A stretch of DNA of 64,000 nucleotides from Chloroflexota bacterium (GTDB lineage: Bacteria > Chloroflexota > Anaerolineae > JAAEKA01): assembly GCA_029558955.1 (NCBI GenBank), contig JAKQCW010000124.1, positions 598-64,597 of the forward strand, written 5' to 3'. The notes below the pieces were generated by a model, which had not been told where the DNA came from, searched no databases, and saw only the letters and a program-made list of their open reading frames with translations. Positions 26,600 through 34,994 of the stretch are shown here, piece after piece; positions within the stretch are counted from its first letter, which is position 1; each line of letters begins with the position of its first letter. The position numbers and the translations under genes were made by a program.

Positions 26600-27060
26600 G
26601 CGCCGCTTGGGAAAATCGCGGCCAGACCCGGCTAAAGCCTCGACTCCTCTCACCCGCCGCTCGGGCCGATCTCCGACCGAGCCCACCCGCTTCATCCACG
26701 GCCGTCCGCCCAGACCCGGCTAAAGCCTCGACTCCTCTCACCCGCCGCTCGGGCCGGTCTCCGACCGAGCCCGCCCGCCTCATCCACGCCCGTCCGCCCA
26801 GACCCGGCTAAAGCCTCGACTCCTCTCACCCGCCGCTCGGGCCGGTCTCCGACCGAGCCCGCCCGCTTCATCCACGGCCGTCCGCCCAGACCCGGCTAAA
26901 GCCTCGACTCCTCTCACCCGCCGCTCGGGCCGATCTCCGACCGAGCCCGCCCGCTTCATCCACGGCCGTCCGCCCAGACCCGGCTAAAGCCTCGACTCCT
27001 CTCACCCGCCGCTCGGGCCGGTCTCCGACCGAGCCCGTCCGCCCAGCGCACATGGACGGC
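26600..27060. repeat. About five tandem ~90-bp copies of repeat family A (…cccggctaaagcctcgactcctctcacccgccgctcgggccggtctccgaccgagcccgcccgcttcatccacggccgtccgcccaga…).
   Basis: Read from the sequence. Overlapping ORF-track entries (26586..26783, 26868..27287) repeat the same peptides and are rejected as genes. Confidence 0.9.
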
Positions 27061-27286
27061 TGTTCTCCGACGCCGCGCCTGAACCGCTGATTTTTCCCCG
27101 TCATGCATGGCCTTGGGAGTGAACCCGAAGCGGCATGCACGGCGTGTAAGCGGCTATGTCGATGGCCACACGGGCGCGTCCGGCCCCGTCCTGATTCAGC
27201 CCATCCACGCGGCTGTGCTATAATCCGCCCCGTGTGAGCCATGATCAGGCAGTTCGATACAAATTTCACACCGAGGAGGCATGACA

Positions 27287-29230
27287 ATGCGAGTAGTTCT
27301 ACGTTCCCTGGCGGTCCTGGTGATCGCCCTTGCCCTGACGCCCATGGCGCTGGCCGCGCCGCAGGCCGCCCAGCCGGAGACGGTCAACACCGGCGACGAG
27401 TTGGTGATCATCACCAGCGACGGACGGCTGGAGGCGCGCGATCCCTATGTTCCGACCGGTTTCCAACCCGTGGTCTGGTCGTCGCCGAGCACTGGTTTCA
27501 CTGACGTGGTCACCGGCGACTTCAACGGCGATGGCACCGACGAGGTGGTGGGCCTGCGCGGCGCCGAGGCTGTCGTCTACGACCCTGTGCGGGGAGCCGG
27601 CGAGCCAGATGTGTCTCATACCTTTTTTGCCACGGCCGGTCAGTTCTGGCGCAACGTGACCACCGGCGACCTGGACGGCGATGGCAGAGATGAGCTGGTG
27701 CTGGCCGAGTCCTCCGGCTCTGGCACCCGGATGGCGTCCTTCAAGTTCGCCAGCAACGCCTGGACTCAGACCTTCAGCGCCTTCTACGGCGCGCCCTGGG
27801 TCGGCCTGACCACCGGCAACGTCATTGGCAGCTCGGCCGGCATGCGCCAGCAGGTAATAGCCATCCGCAACGCGGGCAGCACCTGCCAGATTCTCATCTT
27901 CAACCCAGCCAACAACTGGCAGACCATCAACGAGTTCACCCGCAACTTCCCCTGGATGTATGTGACGGTGGGGGATGTGACGCTGGACGGCGCGGGCAAG
28001 GAGGAGATCGTCGTCACCCGCTCTGGGGTAGGCGCGACCTTGCCCTCCATGTTCGTCTTCCGTTGGGAGCAGCAGTTCCCGGAGCTGCAAGAACAGGAAC
28101 GGGAGGTCTTCAACCCTGAGTTTCGCTGGGTGGCGCTGGCCGACGTCAACGCCAGCGGCGACAAAGAGGTGTTCCTGCTGCGCAACACCGCAGGCGCCGG
28201 CCAGGTTGCATTGACCAGCCGCAACTACGGCAACGACCAGGGCACGCCGGTCTTCAACGAGTTGGCCGGTCAGACTCAATGGAATGGCATCCAGGCTGGC
28301 GACATCGACGCCGATGGCCGCGATGAAGTGATCGTCATGTCACCCACCCAGTACCTGATCTACACGCAGCCTGATGTCAGCACGGCATCGACGCCCTATT
28401 CAGGGTCATTCTGGCGTGACGGCAACTTCGCCGTGGGCGATCTGGACGGCCAGGGCCAGGTAGCCGGGCCCACCTTGTCCGTCTCGCCGCTGAGCCTGGA
28501 CCTGGACCTCCAGGCCGGTCAGAACTTCTCCCAGCCCGTCGCCATCACCAACACCGGTTCGGGCACGCTGAACTGGAGCGCCACGGTGGTGGATGGCTCG
28601 GCTTGGCTCTCGTTCTCCCCCTCCAACGGCACCGCGCCGACCACGGCGCAGTTGATGGTGAGCACCGGCGGCGTCGCGCCTGGCTCCTACGTGGGTCGGG
28701 TGCGCATCGACGCGCCAGGGGCCAACAGCACGCCGCAAACCATCACCGTCAACCTGACGGTGACCGCGCCGGAGTTCGCTGTGCAGCCGAGCCAGGTCTC
28801 CTGGGTCTACACGCCGCCCACCAATCCGGGCGTGCGAACGGTGACCATCCGCGGCCAGAATGTGCCGTGGCATGCGGGCGTGGTTTCCACCTCGGTGGCC
28901 AACCGCGTTGCGCAGGCTGTGGCCGCGGGCCAGCCGGTGACGCTGGAAGATGGCCAGCTGGTGATCGGCGATGGCCGCGGCGCCGAGGACGTGCCGCCCG
29001 TGGTCAACTGGATCAGCATCAACCCCGTTTCCGGCGTGGCCACCCCTGGCGGCATCCTGGTTGACCTGAGCCTGGTGCTGGATCAGGTGCCCAGCGGCTT
29101 CCGGACGGCGGCCGTGGTCTTCGTGGCCGATACGACCGCCTCCCCGCCAGCGCTGGTGGTGCGCGCCAGCACTCTGCGCACGCAGCCCGACGCGTCGGAT
29201 ATCTACTTCCTCCCCCTGATCCTGAGATAG
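27287..29230 (+). CDS. Secreted FG-GAP/VCBS-repeat (beta-propeller-like) protein with C-terminal Ig/BACON-like domains.
   Basis: Signal peptide, then repeated GDFNGDGTDEVV / GDLDGDGRDELV / GDIDADGRDEVI motifs, with a C-terminal LNWSATV…WLSFSP pattern. A GAGGAGG ribosome-binding site lies 7 nt upstream of the ATG at 27287. An alternative ATG is at 27281. Confidence 0.75.
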   Translation: MRVVLRSLAVLVIALALTPMALAAPQAAQPETVNTGDELVIITSDGRLEARDPYVPTGFQPVVWSSPSTGFTDVVTGDFNGDGTDEVVGLRGAEAVVYDPVRGAGEPDVSHTFFATAGQFWRNVTTGDLDGDGRDELVLAESSGSGTRMASFKFASNAWTQTFSAFYGAPWVGLTTGNVIGSSAGMRQQVIAIRNAGSTCQILIFNPANNWQTINEFTRNFPWMYVTVGDVTLDGAGKEEIVVTRSGVGATLPSMFVFRWEQQFPELQEQEREVFNPEFRWVALADVNASGDKEVFLLRNTAGAGQVALTSRNYGNDQGTPVFNELAGQTQWNGIQAGDIDADGRDEVIVMSPTQYLIYTQPDVSTASTPYSGSFWRDGNFAVGDLDGQGQVAGPTLSVSPLSLDLDLQAGQNFSQPVAITNTGSGTLNWSATVVDGSAWLSFSPSNGTAPTTAQLMVSTGGVAPGSYVGRVRIDAPGANSTPQTITVNLTVTAPEFAVQPSQVSWVYTPPTNPGVRTVTIRGQNVPWHAGVVSTSVANRVAQAVAAGQPVTLEDGQLVIGDGRGAEDVPPVVNWISINPVSGVATPGGILVDLSLVLDQVPSGFRTAAVVFVADTTASPPALVVRASTLRTQPDASDIYFLPLILR

Positions 29231-29240
29231 CCTGAAACAG

Positions 29241-29279
29241 AAAAAAAGCCGGACTTCTTCCGAGAAGTCCGGCTTTTTC
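29241..29279. terminator. Bidirectional rho-independent terminator (aaaaaaa gccggacttct tccga gaagtccggc ttttt).
   Basis: Perfect 10-11-bp stem with an A-run 5' and a T-run 3'. It lies between convergent genes. Confidence 0.75.
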
Positions 29280-29327
29280 ATGGAATGCAATGAAGCCAGA
29301 GCCGGGCGAGGACGCCCTGGGCGATGG

Positions 29328-29918
29328 TCAGATGCGGGCGCGGAAGCGGCTGTTGTCCAGCAGATTCTCCGCCATCTCGGCGTGCAGTTGGGGGATGGTC
29401 ACCGCGTTGAGCAACTGGCCCCCCTCGGCGATGGCGTCGCAGGCGATGAGAACCGCGGTCTCTACGTCGGTGAGCGAGCCGCTGAAGAAGGCCAGCCCCT
29501 TGCCACCCAGCCCGTCGGCCAGGCGCAGCTCCAACAGCGTCACCTGCGCGCCCTTCAACCCGGCGTCGGCCGCCTGGATGGCCGCGGCCACGCTGGCCGT
29601 CTCGACGATGCCCAGCGCCTCGATGGGGGCGGGCCGGCGTGCGGCGGCGATGCCGGCCGGCACGTCCGGGTGTACGCCGGGCAGATAGACGTGATCCAGC
29701 ACCGAACCGCTGCCGGCGGCCAGCCCGGCCGCCAGCGCCTCCTGTACGGGGGCCACCTCGCCGCTGACCAGCACCAGATAGCGGCCGGGATGCACCGTGC
29801 CGGCGACGATGCGGGCCACCGGGGCCTTCTTGACCATCGCGTCGCCGGCCAGAATGCCGGCGGCGATGCTGTCGAATTCGACGAGCGCGAGGGCGGGGTC
29901 GATCGCTACCGGGGTCAA
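29328..29918 (-). CDS. Tandem BMC-domain shell protein (BMC-T, PduT/CcmO-like), with two consecutive canonical BMC domains.
   Basis: ALALVEFDSIAAGILAGDAMVKKAPV… and ALGIVETASVAAAIQAADAGLKGAQV… both fit the PF00936-like pattern. The likely TTG start at 29918 overlaps the upstream TGA (TTGA) and has a GAGAGAGG ribosome-binding site. The ORF-track start 29975 would overlap the upstream gene by 60 nt. Confidence 0.7.
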   Translation of the reverse strand: MTPVAIDPALALVEFDSIAAGILAGDAMVKKAPVARIVAGTVHPGRYLVLVSGEVAPVQEALAAGLAAGSGSVLDHVYLPGVHPDVPAGIAAARRPAPIEALGIVETASVAAAIQAADAGLKGAQVTLLELRLADGLGGKGLAFFSGSLTDVETAVLIACDAIAEGGQLLNAVTIPQLHAEMAENLLDNSRFRARI

Positions 29919-30526
29919 ATTGCCTCTCTCCGTATCACATTCAGTGCAGCGTCGAATTGGCGAAAACTGGGACAACGCTGCTTGACGGTTTCGATTTCCC
30001 GTCCCATCTCCACGGCCAAGTCAAAGGCCAACTCCTCGTTAAGCCACCGATGCGCCGTGTGCCTGAGCAGGAATGGCACGACAACCTCGTTCTTGGGATG
30101 CAAGTAGTGCTCCGGTTCTTTGACCAGTGAGGGGAGTGGCCGGCCGAACACGCGCTGCCATGCGTCAGGACAGGCGATCAACCAGGCTTCCAACATCTCG
30201 ACGGCAACGGCAACCACGGCAGGAGCAGCCAAATCAGGCGTCGTCAATGTTCGCAAGGCTTCGACGCACGCAGGATCGCGTTCGTTGTCGACCACGACCA
30301 AGCCGCCCAGAACGCCGCGCCACTGGAATGATCGCACGTAGCCCTGGTAGCGCTTCGGATCATTGACATATTGCCGGCAGCCGCGGATGCGGGCCCGCAC
30401 GAATTCGGCATGAACCGGCCGGCCCAGCAGATGTTCGGTGAGCACCGGCAGCGCGCCGGCGTCGGCTCCTCCATCGACCAGAAAGCCCAGCCGTATCGCC
30501 TCATTTCCAGCTCCAGCCTCAGCCAT
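29915..30526 (-). CDS. Small (~203 aa) acidic partner protein, a candidate DUF4276/TOPRIM-like protein. The family name is recalled from memory, not verified.
   Basis: ATG at 30526 has a GGAGGG ribosome-binding site and overlaps the last codons of the ATPase (ATGGCTGA). It contains the IRLGFLVDGGADAG…LVVVDNERD acidic motifs. Confidence 0.55.
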   Translation of the reverse strand: MAEAGAGNEAIRLGFLVDGGADAGALPVLTEHLLGRPVHAEFVRARIRGCRQYVNDPKRYQGYVRSFQWRGVLGGLVVVDNERDPACVEALRTLTTPDLAAPAVVAVAVEMLEAWLIACPDAWQRVFGRPLPSLVKEPEHYLHPKNEVVVPFLLRHTAHRWLNEELAFDLAVEMGREIETVKQRCPSFRQFDAALNVIRREAI

Positions 30527-31715
30527 CTTGCAGCCCTCCAGATACCCATAGCTCTCCCAGCGGACCAAACGTCTTCTGGCGCTGCGCAATCTCGGTTGCT
30601 GTGAGTTCGACCAGAGTCGTTGGACCGCCGTTGCGGGTGAAGACGAGCAGTTCATCCGGTTGCAGGCGATCCACCAGGTAGGGAGCATGTGTCGTCAGGA
30701 TGATCTGCTGACCTGCGCGGGCGTGGTTGCGCAACAATTCCACCAGTTGGAACAACCTGGCCGGGCTGATGCCGTTTTCTGGTTCTTCGATAGCCAGCAG
30801 GGGTGCAGCGACTGCGCCGTGAGCGATGGCTGCCAGGGCCAGAAAGCGCAAGGTCCCGTCGGAAATCTGGTGGGGATAGAAGCTCAGATTGTTTTTCTCC
30901 CGCATGACGATGACCTTCTGTCCAGGGCCTGCCGCTTCGAGTCTGATGCTGTGCAAACCTGGCACGGCCACCCGGAGTTCGCCGGTGATTGCCTCCAACA
31001 CATCGCCATGCACTTCGTCAAGAACGGCAGCCAGGTTGGCGCCGTTGGGCTGCAGCTCAGCCTGGTACTTCACTGTGGCCGGCTTGCGCATGGCCTGCGG
31101 CTCGAGCCTAAAAACTTTGAACTGGCGCAGGGCGGCAGCCAGTGCAACGGCATGGGGATAGCGAACCCGATCCGACAACTGCGAGAGCGCTGTGCGCTGC
31201 ATGTTCCCAGCGAAAGCCTCGGCCGCGCCGCCGTCCTCCCGCCACGCTTGCCCAGCGTGGAGCAGTGGCTGCCTGTCATCCGGCAAATAATCGAACGCCT
31301 GGCCGTGGGGATGCGATGCGTTGGCGCTGGCAAGGAACGGCCTGCCCACCCGCCATAGCTGCTCCATCCCAACTTCGACCTCGCGTCCGCTGGCCGGGTT
31401 CAGGCCAAAGCCGACTTGATAAAAGAGCAGATCGTCGTCGTTCTGAAAACCAAGCCGGTTGTTCCACGCCTCGATCTGGATGGCGATGATCTGATGCCGT
31501 TCACCGGCGTACACCAGGTCCTCGAACGAGACGCGATTCTCGTGCAGCAAGGCAGACCTCACGCCCATGTCAGTGGCATCAGCCAGGAACGCCAAGCTAT
31601 CCAGGAAATTGCTCTTGCCCGCGCCATTCTTGCCCAACAACACGTTCAACGGGCCGAGACGCACGGTCAGGTCTTTGATGCTGCGGAAATTCTGGACGCA
31701 AATGGCGTTGATCAT
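30519..31715 (-). CDS. AAA_21/AAA_15-type ABC-like ATPase (SMC/RecF-like). This class is found in OLD/AbiE/PARIS-type defence modules.
   Basis: Walker A LLGKNGAGKSN, Q-loop ISDGTLR, Walker B LLAIEEPENG, H-loop ILTTHAP. It starts 15 nt after the aldehyde dehydrogenase stop. Confidence 0.8.
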   Translation of the reverse strand: MINAICVQNFRSIKDLTVRLGPLNVLLGKNGAGKSNFLDSLAFLADATDMGVRSALLHENRVSFEDLVYAGERHQIIAIQIEAWNNRLGFQNDDDLLFYQVGFGLNPASGREVEVGMEQLWRVGRPFLASANASHPHGQAFDYLPDDRQPLLHAGQAWREDGGAAEAFAGNMQRTALSQLSDRVRYPHAVALAAALRQFKVFRLEPQAMRKPATVKYQAELQPNGANLAAVLDEVHGDVLEAITGELRVAVPGLHSIRLEAAGPGQKVIVMREKNNLSFYPHQISDGTLRFLALAAIAHGAVAAPLLAIEEPENGISPARLFQLVELLRNHARAGQQIILTTHAPYLVDRLQPDELLVFTRNGGPTTLVELTATEIAQRQKTFGPLGELWVSGGLQDG

Positions 31716-31730
31716 CAGGCTACCTCTGGG

Positions 31731-33218
31731 CTACACAATCCTAAAATGGTCCACCAGCGTACAGCGCCTAATGCGGCTGAAGGTCAGGGCGGAGGTCAGC
31801 CCCTCGCCGGTGGGGCTGGCAATGCTGAAGCTGGTGAAGCCCTCGCCGCGGTAGCCCAGGCCGGCCAGGTTGGGGCCGTTCTTGACAAAGATCGAGGTGT
31901 CGATCTCCCTGGCCATGCGGCTGAGCTTGTCGATATCGCGGCTCCACATGCTGGCGGTGTGGCCAAAGCCATGTTCGGCCTCCACGGCCAGGTCGATGGC
32001 CTCGTCGCAGGAGCGCACCCGCACCAGCGGCATCACCGGCATGAGCTGCTCCGTCCAGACCAACGGGTGTTCCAGCGGCACCTCGACCAGCGCCAGCCGC
32101 ACCTCCCGACCGGCCGGGATGCCGATCTCGGCCAGGATCTCAGCAGCGTACTTGCCGACCCACTGCTTGTTGGTGACGCCCGGCTTGCGGGGCGCGCCCA
32201 GTTCTTTGAAGATCACCCGCTCCAGGCTGCGCAGCTTGTGCGCCGGCACCTCGACCGCGCCGTGCGCACACATGGCGGCCTTGAGCTGATCGGCTACCCG
32301 GTCGACGACGAAGATCTCCTTCTCGTCCACGCAGATGATGTTGTTGTCGAAGCCGCCGCCGAAGACGATCTCGCGGCCAGCCTTGTCGATGTCGGCCGTC
32401 TCATCCACCACCACCGGCGGGTTGCCCGGCCCGGCGCAGATGGCCCGCTTGCCGCTGGCCATGGCCTCTTTGACCACCCCTGGCCCGCCCGTCACCAGCA
32501 GCACCCGCACGCCAGGATGGCGCATCAAGGCCTGGGCGCTCTCGATGGTCGGCTCGACCAGGGCTGTCAGCAGGTTGGCCGGCCCGCCCGCGCCGACGAT
32601 GGCCCGATTGATGAGCTGGATCTGGTAGGAACAGACATGTTTGGCGCTGGGGTGAACGTTGAAGACCACCGCGTTGCCGGCTGACAGGATGCTGATGGCG
32701 TTGTTGATGATGGTGGATGTGGGGTTGGTGACCGGCGTGATGGCGCCGACGGCGCCGAAGGGGGCGCGCTCCACCAGGCTCAGCCCGCCGTCGCCGCTCC
32801 AGGCCAGGGGTTGCAAGATCTCCGGGCCAGGGGTTTTTTCGATCACCAACAGGTTCTTCTGCACCTTGTCCTCGAACCGGCCCAGCCCGCTCTCCTCATG
32901 GGCCATGCGCGCCAGCAGCTCGGCGTTGGCCCGCATGGCCGCGCGCACGGCGGCGATGATCTCGTGGCGTCTGGCCAGGGTCATGCCGTTCAGGGCGCGG
33001 AAGGCCGCGCGCGCCGCGGCCACGGCGTCGTCCATGGTCGTGAAGATGCCATCCTGGCCGGCGGCGTTGGGACCGGGCGCGGCCCGGCCCGCGCGGCCGA
33101 TGTGCGCCAGATGCGGCGCGGGGCCGGGGGCGGCGGTCGGCGGCGCGCTGCTGTTCAGCTCACGCTGCACGCGCTGGACGATGGATTGGATCTGGGCGTT
33201 GTCGAGGGGGTGGGTCAT
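31731..33218 (-). CDS. CoA-acylating aldehyde dehydrogenase of the BMC-associated EutE/PduP family. It has an N-terminal amphipathic helix (LDNAQIQSIVQRVQRELNS) and an Ala/Pro/Gly-rich linker (encapsulation-peptide-like).
   Basis: Strong resemblance to EutE throughout (…ITPVTNPTSTIINNAISILSAGNAVVFNVHP…, C-terminal …SPTGEGLTSALTFSRIRRCTLVDHFRIV). ATG at 33218 is the second codon after a TTG. Confidence 0.85.
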   Translation of the reverse strand: MTHPLDNAQIQSIVQRVQRELNSSAPPTAAPGPAPHLAHIGRAGRAAPGPNAAGQDGIFTTMDDAVAAARAAFRALNGMTLARRHEIIAAVRAAMRANAELLARMAHEESGLGRFEDKVQKNLLVIEKTPGPEILQPLAWSGDGGLSLVERAPFGAVGAITPVTNPTSTIINNAISILSAGNAVVFNVHPSAKHVCSYQIQLINRAIVGAGGPANLLTALVEPTIESAQALMRHPGVRVLLVTGGPGVVKEAMASGKRAICAGPGNPPVVVDETADIDKAGREIVFGGGFDNNIICVDEKEIFVVDRVADQLKAAMCAHGAVEVPAHKLRSLERVIFKELGAPRKPGVTNKQWVGKYAAEILAEIGIPAGREVRLALVEVPLEHPLVWTEQLMPVMPLVRVRSCDEAIDLAVEAEHGFGHTASMWSRDIDKLSRMAREIDTSIFVKNGPNLAGLGYRGEGFTSFSIASPTGEGLTSALTFSRIRRCTLVDHFRIV

Positions 33219-33278
33219 GGTCAATGGTCAATGGTTGATTGGGGAATGCGGGAATGGTTATTTGGGGAAGGGGAATGG

Positions 33279-34736
33279 CTAGTGGCAGGTGTAGAGGGCG
33301 AGGTTGGGAGTGGGGGTGCTTTGCAGGGTGCAGTTGGCCTCGACAATGCTCCGCAGGCGGGCGTGCCAGGGGAGGGGCTCGCTGTCATCTACTACTACCA
33401 CAGGCGCGATGTGCTGGGTGATCAAGTCGGCCAGCTCGGCCTCGCGCGCGGGGCTGTGATTGACCGGATACAGGTAGATCCACCGGGTCGCGGGCGGCCG
33501 GTCGCTGAGAAAATAGACCTGCGGCGCGGCGGTGATGGCCAGAATCGGCAGGCCGGGCTGGCTCAGGGCCTGGACGGCCGCAGCCACGACCTGCTGCCGC
33601 TCAACCAGACGCTGTGTATGGGCCAGATAGCGCGGCCAGGCGGGCAGGTCGATCAGGGCCAGCGCCAGCAGGCCGGCCACAGCCAGCGCCCGCCAGGGCC
33701 AGGGCCGGCAGGATAGCCATTGCCAGAGCGCCGCCAGGCCGGCCGCTGCCAACGCGGCTGCCGGCGGCAGCGCTTGCAGCACGTAGTGGCCGTAGAAGCG
33801 GTGCAGCAGCGGCAGCAGACCGGCCAGCAGCATCAGCCAGAGCAGGGTGGCCCGCTGGCCGGCTGCGCTCCGTCGTAGGCTGGGGGGAGCGAAGATCAGC
33901 GCCGGCAGCAGGCCTAGCCACAGCAGCGGGAAGGAGCGCAGGTTGATCAGGTTGCCTGACAGCAGCGCGGCAAAGGATGCCCGCGGGTACTGGCTCAGGT
34001 TGACCCAGATGGCGTCGCGCCACAGGTCAGGCAACGCGCCCTGTGTGGCGAAAAACGCGGCCGTCGCCAGCAGCGGCGCCGTGCAGCCGGCTATCAACGC
34101 CAGCCAGCGCCGGCCCACCTGGCGCCAGTCGCCCCGGATCGACGCGGCCCAGAGCGCCAGGGCGGGCAGGGCCAACAGACCGGTCTGTTTGAACAGCGCC
34201 GCGAGACCGACCAGCCATCCGGCCAGCAGCCAGTCGCCGGTCGAGGGGGGCTGGCTGGAGCGACGCAGCAACGACGCCAGCGCCGCGGCCGTGAAGAGCG
34301 CCGTCCAGGCTTCGGTGGTCAGATGGCCGCCCTGGTAGGCAGCGCCGCCATAGAGCGCCAGCAGCAGCGTCAGCGCGCCGGCCAGACGACCCCACAGCCG
34401 CCAGGCCAGCCAGCCGGTCAGTCCGGCCATGGCCATCACGGCCAACAGTTGCACCAACTGCACCGCCCGCAGCGAACGCCCGGACAGCGCCAGCGCGGCG
34501 GCAAAGGTGTAGTAGATGCCGGGCGTCTTGTGGTCGAAGAGGTCGCGGTAGGGCAGGCGACCGGCCAGGATCGCATCGGCCATGGTCAGGTAGGCCCCGG
34601 CGTCGTTGCTCACCGGCGTGGCTGCCGTCGATGCCGCCAACAGCAGCAGCACCGCCGCCAGCGCCAGCCCAAAAGAGAGCCAAACGACGCCGCGATAGAT
34701 CAACGTCAGCCGTCCGGGGTGCTGGTCAATGGTCAA
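33279..34736 (-). CDS. Integral-membrane glycosyltransferase of the ArnT/PMT (GT39/GT83) family.
   Basis: AYLTMADAILAGRLPYRDLFDHKTPGIYY loop-1 motif followed by many transmembrane helices. The start is uncertain (TTG at 34736 proposed). The 5' half of ORF 33279..35723 is rejected. Confidence 0.65.
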   Translation of the reverse strand: MTIDQHPGRLTLIYRGVVWLSFGLALAAVLLLLAASTAATPVSNDAGAYLTMADAILAGRLPYRDLFDHKTPGIYYTFAAALALSGRSLRAVQLVQLLAVMAMAGLTGWLAWRLWGRLAGALTLLLALYGGAAYQGGHLTTEAWTALFTAAALASLLRRSSQPPSTGDWLLAGWLVGLAALFKQTGLLALPALALWAASIRGDWRQVGRRWLALIAGCTAPLLATAAFFATQGALPDLWRDAIWVNLSQYPRASFAALLSGNLINLRSFPLLWLGLLPALIFAPPSLRRSAAGQRATLLWLMLLAGLLPLLHRFYGHYVLQALPPAAALAAAGLAALWQWLSCRPWPWRALAVAGLLALALIDLPAWPRYLAHTQRLVERQQVVAAAVQALSQPGLPILAITAAPQVYFLSDRPPATRWIYLYPVNHSPAREAELADLITQHIAPVVVVDDSEPLPWHARLRSIVEANCTLQSTPTPNLALYTCH

Positions 34737-34738
34737 TG

Positions 34739-34830
34739 CTGCACCGTGGGTCGAGTAGCCGGCTGCGGCGTATCGAGACCCGTCTGCACCGTGGGTCGAG
34801 TAGCCGGCTGCGGCGTATCGAGACCTCCGG
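34739..34830. repeat. Two tandem 46-bp copies (ctgcaccgtgggtcgagtagccggctgcggcgtatcgagacc).
   Basis: Read from the sequence, immediately upstream of the glycosyltransferase. Confidence 0.85.
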
Positions 34831-34994
34831 AGGGTTTCGATACGCTGGCCTCTGCTGACCTCATGCGAGTCGGCGCACCTCAACCCGCTACTTAACCCGC
34901 GTCGTTCCGTTGGTCGCATGCATCCTCGATGGTTGATTGACCCGCTCAGCATGCCAGGATAGGGCGCTTGTAGTTGGCAAAAATGGAGTATGCC

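Follow-up and report, generated by a model that had tools for sequence, protein, structure and literature searches.

How does a gene pair resembling an anti-phage module come to lie between an aldehyde dehydrogenase and a shell protein of a bacterial microcompartment (BMC)? The question is raised by a 64,000-nt stretch of DNA (the window, to which all coordinates refer unless a contig is named) from a Chloroflexota bacterium (Anaerolineae; JAAEKA01), corresponding to positions 598 to 64,597 of the forward strand of contig JAKQCW010000124.1 in assembly GCA_029558955.1. The open reading frame (ORF) listing gives four closely spaced minus-strand ORFs at 29328-33218, encoding an aldehyde dehydrogenase (ALDH), an ATPase, its small partner and a tandem-domain shell protein (BMC-T). 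The initial annotation, made from the letters alone, had offered two explanations: that a satellite BMC fragment had captured a defence-like ATPase and partner into its transcription unit, or that shell protein, dehydrogenase and ATPase form an undescribed system. We consider it likely that the locus is an operon of the SPU (sugar-phosphate/deoxyribose-utilising) type with a cassette of the HEC-01 (Hma-embedded candidate 1) type inserted at the start of BMC-T, and that this cassette is a conflict or anti-phage passenger with no role in the organelle. The genes and the cassette are as follows.

31731 to 33218, minus strand: EutE/PduP-type CoA-acylating ALDH, 495 aa, ATG start; matches PF00171 and PRK15398.
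30519 to 31715, minus strand: ABC-type (AAA_21) ATPase, 398 aa, HEC-01A-like; matches AAA_21 and PADLOC HEC-01A.
29915 to 30526, minus strand: DUF4276/Toprim-like partner, 203 aa, HEC-01B-like; its start overlaps the ATPase stop by 8 nt (ATGGCTGA).
29328 to 29918, minus strand: tandem-BMC shell protein (BMC-T), 196 aa, TTG start; two PF00936 domains.
29901 to 31715, minus strand: inserted cassette, ~1.81 kb; delimited against empty-site alleles L023 and L032, filled allele L019 and GC content at third codon positions (GC3).

The packing of the four genes is just as first annotated: ALDH and ATPase are separated by 15 nt, ATPase and partner overlap in ATGGCTGA, and partner and BMC-T overlap in TTGA.

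The clearest view of the insertion comes from two alleles, L032 and L019, whose flanks are 97–99% identical at the nucleotide level over ~9 kb. L032 cleanly lacks the 1.8-kb cassette, and the cassette is therefore polymorphic within a species-level lineage. At the junction, the sequence of L032 (empty) is TGA-GCCAAGCC-ATG-GAT-CCT, with a BMC-T that starts MDPALAL; that of L019 (filled) is TGA-GCCAAGCC-ATG-ATC-AAC, the beginning of the ATPase, and resumes at ...GTGACCACGGTATCAATC-GAC-CCT. Because of this alignment, the cassette can be placed exactly on the BMC-T start codon, where the ATPase has taken over that start and BMC-T has gained a new one. The cassette extends from the ATPase start, where the ancestral BMC-T had its ATG, up to the ATC codon that directly precedes the conserved Asp-Pro-Ala-Leu-Ala-Leu of BMC-T. 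In every cassette-bearing lineage checked, the partner stop and the BMC-T start overlap in NTGA (TTGA, GTGA or ATGA), and BMC-T bears a 5-residue N-terminal extension that derives from the cassette and is confined to cassette-bearing alleles.

The pair is carried by L019/L020, L024/L025, L026/L027, L031, L111/L112 and L113. ALDH is directly followed by BMC-T inside a complete locus in L021/L022, L023, L032, L033 and L034, and in L021/L022 and L023 (BMC-T 87–88% identical) the whole locus is syntenic. The wider distribution was surveyed by a BMC-T-alignment scan with one genome per species, giving 80 loci from Chloroflexota, Gemmatimonadota, Acidimicrobiia and other groups. Among these species-representative loci, ALDH immediately upstream of BMC-T is the rule, and the pair occurs in a single locus (L031, from an uncultured Anaerolinea); hidden Markov models built from the ATPase and partner alignments gave no convincing relative in the other 79. 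An undescribed system in which shell protein and ALDH work with the ATPase, as the initial annotation had suggested, is not supported, given these 79 loci without the pair and the close relatives with ALDH next to BMC-T, whereas its proposal that a defence-like ATPase and partner were captured between ALDH and BMC-T in the same unit is supported by the empty-site alleles and by the HEC-01 match described below.

The empty site of L032 may reflect loss, homologous replacement or a retained ancestral polymorphism. Simple deletion was considered as its origin and rejected, since the 2-nt microhomology would leave ATC-GAC and not the observed ATG-GAT. In several lineages (L021/L022, L034, L036 and L037) the ALDH-BMC-T spacer consists of simple heptamer or octamer tandem repeats (GTGATCG(G), TACCGTT, CCAATAC and others), and these repeats suggest that the junction is an unstable, permissive spot.

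What the cassette encodes was assessed by profile searches and structural modelling. The ATPase matches AAA_21 at 1e-30 and PADLOC HEC-01A over its full length at 7.7e-59, and its Walker A (GKNGAGKS), SDGTLR signature, IEEPE and H-loop His motifs are all intact and conserved, with both Glu residues of IEEPE invariant across the family. The first assignment of this protein to the AAA_21/ABC-like ATPases is thereby confirmed. Its closest solved structures are OLD, retron PtuA, GajA, SMC heads and AriA. For the partner, the match to PADLOC HEC-01B is partial (1.5e-6). All 19 members of the partner family match the DUF4276 model, and 9 of the 10 profile-level relatives tested score above its gathering cut-off. 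The family appears to be sparse, with only 222 representatives among 1.84 billion in a partner-family profile search. A Toprim domain is recognized by a three-layer fold of beta2-beta1-beta3-beta4 order with a conserved acidic residue following beta1 and, after beta3, a motif of the DxD type; the partner has conserved acidic positions at D/E18, D80-N81-E/D82 and E110/E113, and its AlphaFold2 model (pLDDT 80.8) consists of an alpha/beta domain with four strands and a C-terminal half that is helical. A search of the PDB with the partner profile gave no sequence matches, and Foldseek with the partner model added nothing informative. The modelled structure favours a Toprim fold but is not decisive. 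HEC-01 is defined by a HEC-01A ABC ATPase adjoining a HEC-01B Toprim protein, and here the corresponding genes overlap by 8 nt. The pair thus matches the HEC-01-type ABC ATPase plus Toprim candidate defence system, as judged from profiles and gene order.

Base composition sets the cassette apart from its surroundings. In the window its GC3 is 0.68–0.73 against 0.91 in the flanks, and in every lineage the cassette genes (0.53–0.75) lie below the ALDH and BMC-T flanks (0.85–0.93), marking the cassette as compositionally foreign. Between the window and L019, the ratio of nonsynonymous to synonymous divergence (dN/dS) is 0.113 for the ATPase (dS 0.90) and 0.107 for the partner (dS 1.34), compared with 0.09–0.28 for the flanking genes (dS 0.29–0.42). 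These values point to purifying selection on both the ATPase and the partner. Synonymous divergence in the cassette is 2–4 times that of the flanks in this comparison, which could be due to weaker codon bias or older alleles. Despite long residence, cassette GC3 is unameliorated in all lineages; together with the high dS, this may stem from weak selection on codon use, from allele exchange or from selection that favours low expression.

The age of the insertion can be judged from the homologues of the ATPase. These grade from 100% to 64% identity, all with 398–400 aa, and then drop to 43% and ~30%; in the clade at or above 64%, all eight sampled lineages carry the cassette at the same ALDH-BMC-T site. 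The ATPase tree, ((window,L019),(L031,L024)),L026, matches the ALDH tree for these taxa, and the empty alleles L032, L021, L023, L033 and L034 are interleaved among the cassette carriers in the ALDH tree. By these comparisons the insertion is old and patchily retained. The pattern fits a single ancient gain followed by repeated loss or replacement by empty alleles, or alternatively exchange of the cassette through its conserved flanks. The initial annotation had stated that its interpretation would fall if close relatives had ALDH next to BMC-T in a complete locus and the pair were clearly a recent insertion: such relatives do exist and speak against the joint system, with the qualification that the insertion is old, not recent.

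Retention for so long at one site also bears on why the cassette persists. One explanation is that it does so mainly by owning the BMC-T start codon and ribosome-binding site, such that imprecise deletion or a polar mutation would silence BMC-T, leaving homologous replacement by an intact empty allele as the only route by which the cassette could be lost. The cassette does begin at the ancestral BMC-T ATG with an NTGA restart in every lineage, and the empty sites are all clean and ancestral-looking, with no decayed cassette remnants seen. However, a dN/dS of ~0.11 on both proteins and their intact motifs argue that the proteins themselves are selected and not just their position, and the translational coupling is a prediction, as an internal start could work without it. 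We regard this explanation as improbable. There is a marginally better, although still small, chance that the cassette is in some way more than a passenger, either by holding BMC-T expression hostage or by having its expression tied to induction of an organelle that catabolises DNA detritus. If the latter were true, expression of the cassette would coincide with exposure of the cell to foreign nucleic acid, and either version would add a new means by which a conflict module in a metabolic operon stabilises itself or is regulated.

The same gap between ALDH and BMC-T is occupied differently elsewhere. In 13 of the 80 related loci (Ardenticatenaceae, Promineifilaceae and others) it measures ~1.4–2.0 kb; these include L044 (8180-10001), L045, L047, L050, L054, L059, L078, L081, L104 and L105. 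Translation of the gap in L044, L045 and L047 revealed a response-regulator receiver (REC) domain fused to a ParA/MinD/BcsQ-like ATPase, together with a ~190-aa protein. In L044 the ATPase matches Response_reg at 8.7e-28 and CBP_BcsQ at 1.6e-10, and the ~190-aa protein has no Pfam match. This REC plus ParA/MinD-like pair may be a McdAB-like positioning pair or another insertion tolerated at this junction.

Could the ATPase and partner of the window likewise be functional BMC components, acting in positioning or assembly, or supplying the SPU pathway, as a nuclease, with deoxyribose derived from DNA? The tight coupling within the operon and the stable co-inheritance with the locus are in line with this, as are the different ATPase and ~190-aa protein in the same gap of 13 loci and the proposal that SPU BMCs catabolise DNA breakdown products (PMC8217296). 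However, 79 of 80 species-level relatives and a 97–99% identical genome lack the pair, its composition is foreign, its nearest relatives reside in toxin-antitoxin and restriction-modification contexts, and an encapsulation peptide is not evident on either protein. A role in the organelle therefore seems very improbable to us.

The window itself contains neither a BMC-H nor a BMC-P gene, as the initial annotation had noted, and phmmer searches of six-frame ORFs with PduA, EutN and CcmL recovered only the known BMC-T. This observation is correct but misleading. An identical ATPase is present on 20 public contigs, and of the ten retrieved, seven (L001-L004 and L006-L008; 99.9% nucleotide identity) carry a single syntenic locus whose 3' end is formed by the four genes. 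As far as the individual contigs extend, its order is thiolase, S26 peptidase, RpiB, DeoC, a 95-aa ORF, a CsoS1D-like BMC-T, BMC-H, pyrophosphatase, Lactamase_B, BMC-P (EutN), PMT_2, ALDH, ATPase, DUF4276 partner and BMC-T. BMC-H (97 aa) and the EutN_CcmL BMC-P (97 aa) occur in all seven contigs, 1.5–5 kb upstream, and both are absent from the 64-kb window. A DeoC-type aldolase (pfam01791), RpiB (pfam02502) and the aldehyde dehydrogenase AldDh are found together in L001-L004 and L006, and the first two lie outside the window. The SPU type, common in Anaerolineae, is defined by the presence of DeoC, RpiB and AldDh together (PMC8217296). By gene content, then, the window genes are the 3' part of an SPU-type BMC operon. 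Two further features mark the upstream side of the four genes.

33279 to 34736, minus strand: PMT_2-family membrane glycosyltransferase-like gene, directly upstream of ALDH; its position is kept in related BMC loci.
34745 (or 34739) to 34901, no strand assigned: dispersed repeat, ~155 bp, in 42-45-nt tandem units (GGTCGAGTAGCCGGCTGCGGCGTATCGAGACCC...); found by blastn against L001-L018.

The window matches the sister contigs at 99.9% only from 26795 to 34901 (blastn), and beyond 34901 it tracks contig L005 into GH39, Hva1 and SBP_bac_5 genes. The ~155-bp repeat sits between BMC-P and PMT_2 and also between GH20 and GH39, the latter being the normal context of GH39 in eight other contigs. It recurs at L001 6815-6975 and L011 5658-5950, so that at least two loci of the genome contain it, with a varying number of units, and several contigs terminate inside it. 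Since the break lies inside a repeat shared by both loci, the separation of the window from BMC-H and BMC-P is attributable to either a repeat-mediated rearrangement or an assembly mis-join. The opposing view, that the window is a genuine satellite or FRAG-type fragment apart from any main locus, draws on the lack of BMC-H, BMC-P, DeoC and RpiB within reach in both the window and L005, and on the independent assembly of the same junction in two assemblies. FRAG-type BMCs have scattered shell genes, a BMC-P triplet and no defined main locus (PMC8217296), whereas the sister contigs have one BMC-P in a defined, syntenic main locus. The seven near-identical contigs run on into that full SPU-type locus, and the break coincides with the repeat at which other contigs stop. 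We thus depart from the satellite reading of the initial annotation, which now appears highly unlikely.

Some members of this locus are odd companions for a metabolosome. In the BMC operon of this clade, the PMT_2 gene (dolichyl-phosphate-mannose type; 33279-34736 and the matching position in L001-L034) is conserved between BMC-P and ALDH, and the same holds for pyrophosphatase and Lactamase_B genes between BMC-H and BMC-P.

The genes on either side of the cassette are typical of a BMC. ALDH matches PF00171 at 4e-40 and scores 637 bits against NCBIfam PRK15398, well above the curated cut-off of 403, which places it in the EutE-type subfamily; with a GC3 of 0.909, it is native to the BMC operon. 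Encapsulation peptides are terminal amphipathic helices of ~18 residues joined to a poorly conserved flexible linker, and they are predicted at the N terminus of most SPU aldehyde dehydrogenases (PMC11585597). The corresponding features of ALDH are as follows.

33153 to 33206, minus strand: encapsulation-peptide-like amphipathic helix, residues 5-22 (LDNAQIQSIVQRVQRELN); identified by hydrophobic moment.
33048 to 33152, minus strand: Ala/Pro/Gly linker; identified by composition.

The hydrophobic moment (muH) of the helix, 0.67, is at the 98.8th percentile within the protein, and the helix is kept in relatives down to ~55% identity. The linker that follows is 66% Ala/Pro/Gly and variable in sequence across relatives. 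The ALDH N terminus therefore looks like an encapsulation peptide, in both helix and linker. BMC-T has two PF00936 domains in one chain (113.6 bits, 4e-33); its score against the PduT equivalog TIGR02526 is 88.3 bits, below the cut-off of 250.3, and by this measure it is PduT-like in architecture only. For these two flanking genes, all three of the earlier calls (an EutE/PduP-family enzyme, an encapsulation-peptide-like N terminus and a two-domain shell protein) hold. In L024 (11800-12410; GCA_037045275.1), BMC-T has a frameshift after about residue 78 when compared with L025, which is otherwise nearly identical; this reflects a pseudogene or an assembly error.

Downstream of BMC-T, the strong terminator that had been annotated was also found.

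29242 to 29279, minus strand: intrinsic-terminator-like hairpin, 17-bp stem with flanking A and T runs.

This hairpin lies between BMC-T and a convergent FG-GAP/BACON gene, is common to both and closes the operon. A promoter scan of 28.5–34.5 kb detected no sigma-70-like sites, although the sigma-70 consensus is uninformative for Chloroflexota, and an Rfam search of 25–37 kb gave zero matches. Farther downstream, the TGT and FG-GAP/BACON genes diverge from an intergenic region that contains an 88-bp unit in 4.8 tandem copies (97% identity; 26622-27042). The copy number varies between the otherwise 99.9%-identical contigs L001-L008, and contig ends are frequent there.

A model for the cassette as an inserted passenger can be proposed. 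The ancestral locus would have ended in BMC-P, PMT_2, ALDH and BMC-T, and the accessory cassette, a HEC-01-type ATPase with a DUF4276/Toprim-like nuclease, would have entered precisely at the BMC-T start codon. The ATPase would now use the former ribosome-binding site and ATG of BMC-T, the partner would be translationally coupled to it via the 8-nt overlap, which suggests co-translation at a fixed ratio, and BMC-T probably restarts from the new TTG, GTG or ATG codon that overlaps the partner stop in NTGA. Without an evident promoter of its own, the cassette presumably depends on the BMC operon for its transcription. If PARIS, OLD/Gabija and Mad3/Mad4 of MADS are a guide, the ABC ATPase may bind the Toprim partner and either restrain or activate it, sensing or gating the response to a foreign trigger, upon which the partner would cut DNA or RNA as part of a conflict or anti-phage module. 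We regard the insertion site, the accessory and polymorphic distribution, the foreign composition, the purifying selection and the intact catalytic motifs as established by comparison of alleles and homologues. The nuclease activity of the partner, its trigger and a defence phenotype we infer only, from related systems.

Several observations weigh against this reading of the cassette. Its neighbourhood is not a defence island, and HEC-01 gave no protection in the only published assay, in E. coli (bioRxiv 10.1101/2024.01.29.577857). The partner itself scores only 24.0–24.7 bits against DUF4276 (PF14103), below the gathering score of 30.2. A fold search with the partner model is dominated by generic three-layer alpha/beta folds, with the OLD Toprim domain only at rank 29. 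Finally, the cassette has persisted at one site over long divergence (ATPase identity down to 64%, eight lineages), with a tree congruent with that of ALDH; a locus-specific benefit is possible, because such stability is unusual for a purely selfish passenger.

Read as a passenger, the cassette corrects the appealing idea of a shell protein and an encapsulated enzyme cooperating with an SMC-like ATPase. It also provides a clean natural case of an embedded ABC-ATPase/Toprim candidate defence cassette in a metabolic organelle operon, outside a defence island. Its value lies in an insertion that is resolved to the start codon, long maintained under purifying selection and polymorphic within a species-level lineage. 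The case is relevant to the discovery of defence systems through guilt by association and to the annotation of BMC loci, where such inserts can be mistaken for organelle components. The natural plus and minus alleles L019 and L032 could give HEC-01 a testable phenotype, none having been demonstrated so far.

Among known systems, the closest is HEC-01, an ABC ATPase plus a Toprim protein discovered embedded inside Hma systems (bioRxiv 10.1101/2024.01.29.577857). The pair described here resembles it in having two genes, ATPase first, with overlapping start and stop codons, in the full-length HEC-01A match (7.7e-59) with a weaker one to HEC-01B, and in being nested in another operon. It differs in that the host operon is a metabolic microcompartment and not Hma or restriction-modification, and in that the partner is a divergent DUF4276 protein with Asp for Glu at the first acidic position. 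The pairs of the nearest out-group (43% identity) adjoin a HEPN/nucleotidyltransferase (MNT) toxin-antitoxin pair, between an FGGY kinase gene and dnaN. On the Meiothermus taiwanensis plasmid pMtWR-220 (L115, 53056-59681), an AAA ATPase plus DUF4276 pair lies between hsdS and hsdR of a type I restriction-modification operon. Because the HEC-01 and Meiothermus pairs are nested likewise, embedding with overlapping codons appears to be the usual habit of the family, and only the host operon is unusual here. The order on pMtWR-220 is hsdS, a DUF4433 plus macro-domain (DarTG-like) pair, the ATPase plus DUF4276 pair and hsdR, joined by 4-nt overlaps or short gaps as stacked embedded cassettes. Homologues of the ATPase on enterobacterial plasmids and phages (~28% identity) were set aside as uninformative; the one inspected, in phage RCS47, is a solitary ATPase next to blaSHV and IS26.

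More distant likenesses are found with other ATPase-nuclease systems. PARIS also has a separate ABC ATPase (AriA) and a small Toprim-superfamily effector (AriB), with a working model of sensing or gating by the ATPase and release of the nuclease (PMC11464382), and AriA is among the solved relatives detectable by sequence. However, AriB is a DUF4435 and not a DUF4276 protein, the partner here matches only HEC-01B models and no AriB model, and the similarity to AriA is only generic AAA_21. A published description places DUF4276 in the Toprim superfamily, with Mad4 of MADS and the C-terminal domain of Menshen NsnC as homologues (PMC12065111). In MADS, Mad3 is the best NCBIfam match of the ATPase and Mad4 is a DUF4276 homologue (PMC12065111), but the match to Mad3 reaches 137 bits where the cut-off is 420, and neither a methyltransferase nor other MADS genes are nearby. 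In OLD and Gabija GajA, the ATPase and Toprim domains are fused, unlike the two separate ORFs here, which also lack a GajB-like helicase.

A literature search for defence systems in BMC loci returned nothing relevant, and no paper on defence cassettes inside BMC operons was found. The host operon is itself familiar: as in SPU-type BMCs (Sutter et al. 2021; PMC11585597), the sister contigs have DeoC, RpiB, an AldDh with a putative encapsulation peptide, BMC-H, BMC-P and BMC-T. Unlike these, the locus of this clade also has PMT_2, pyrophosphatase and Lactamase_B genes, and the window itself keeps only ALDH and one BMC-T linked. Thus, neither component is new in kind, the BMC being of the SPU type and the pair of the HEC-01/DUF4276 type, and their juxtaposition is a new context, not a new system.

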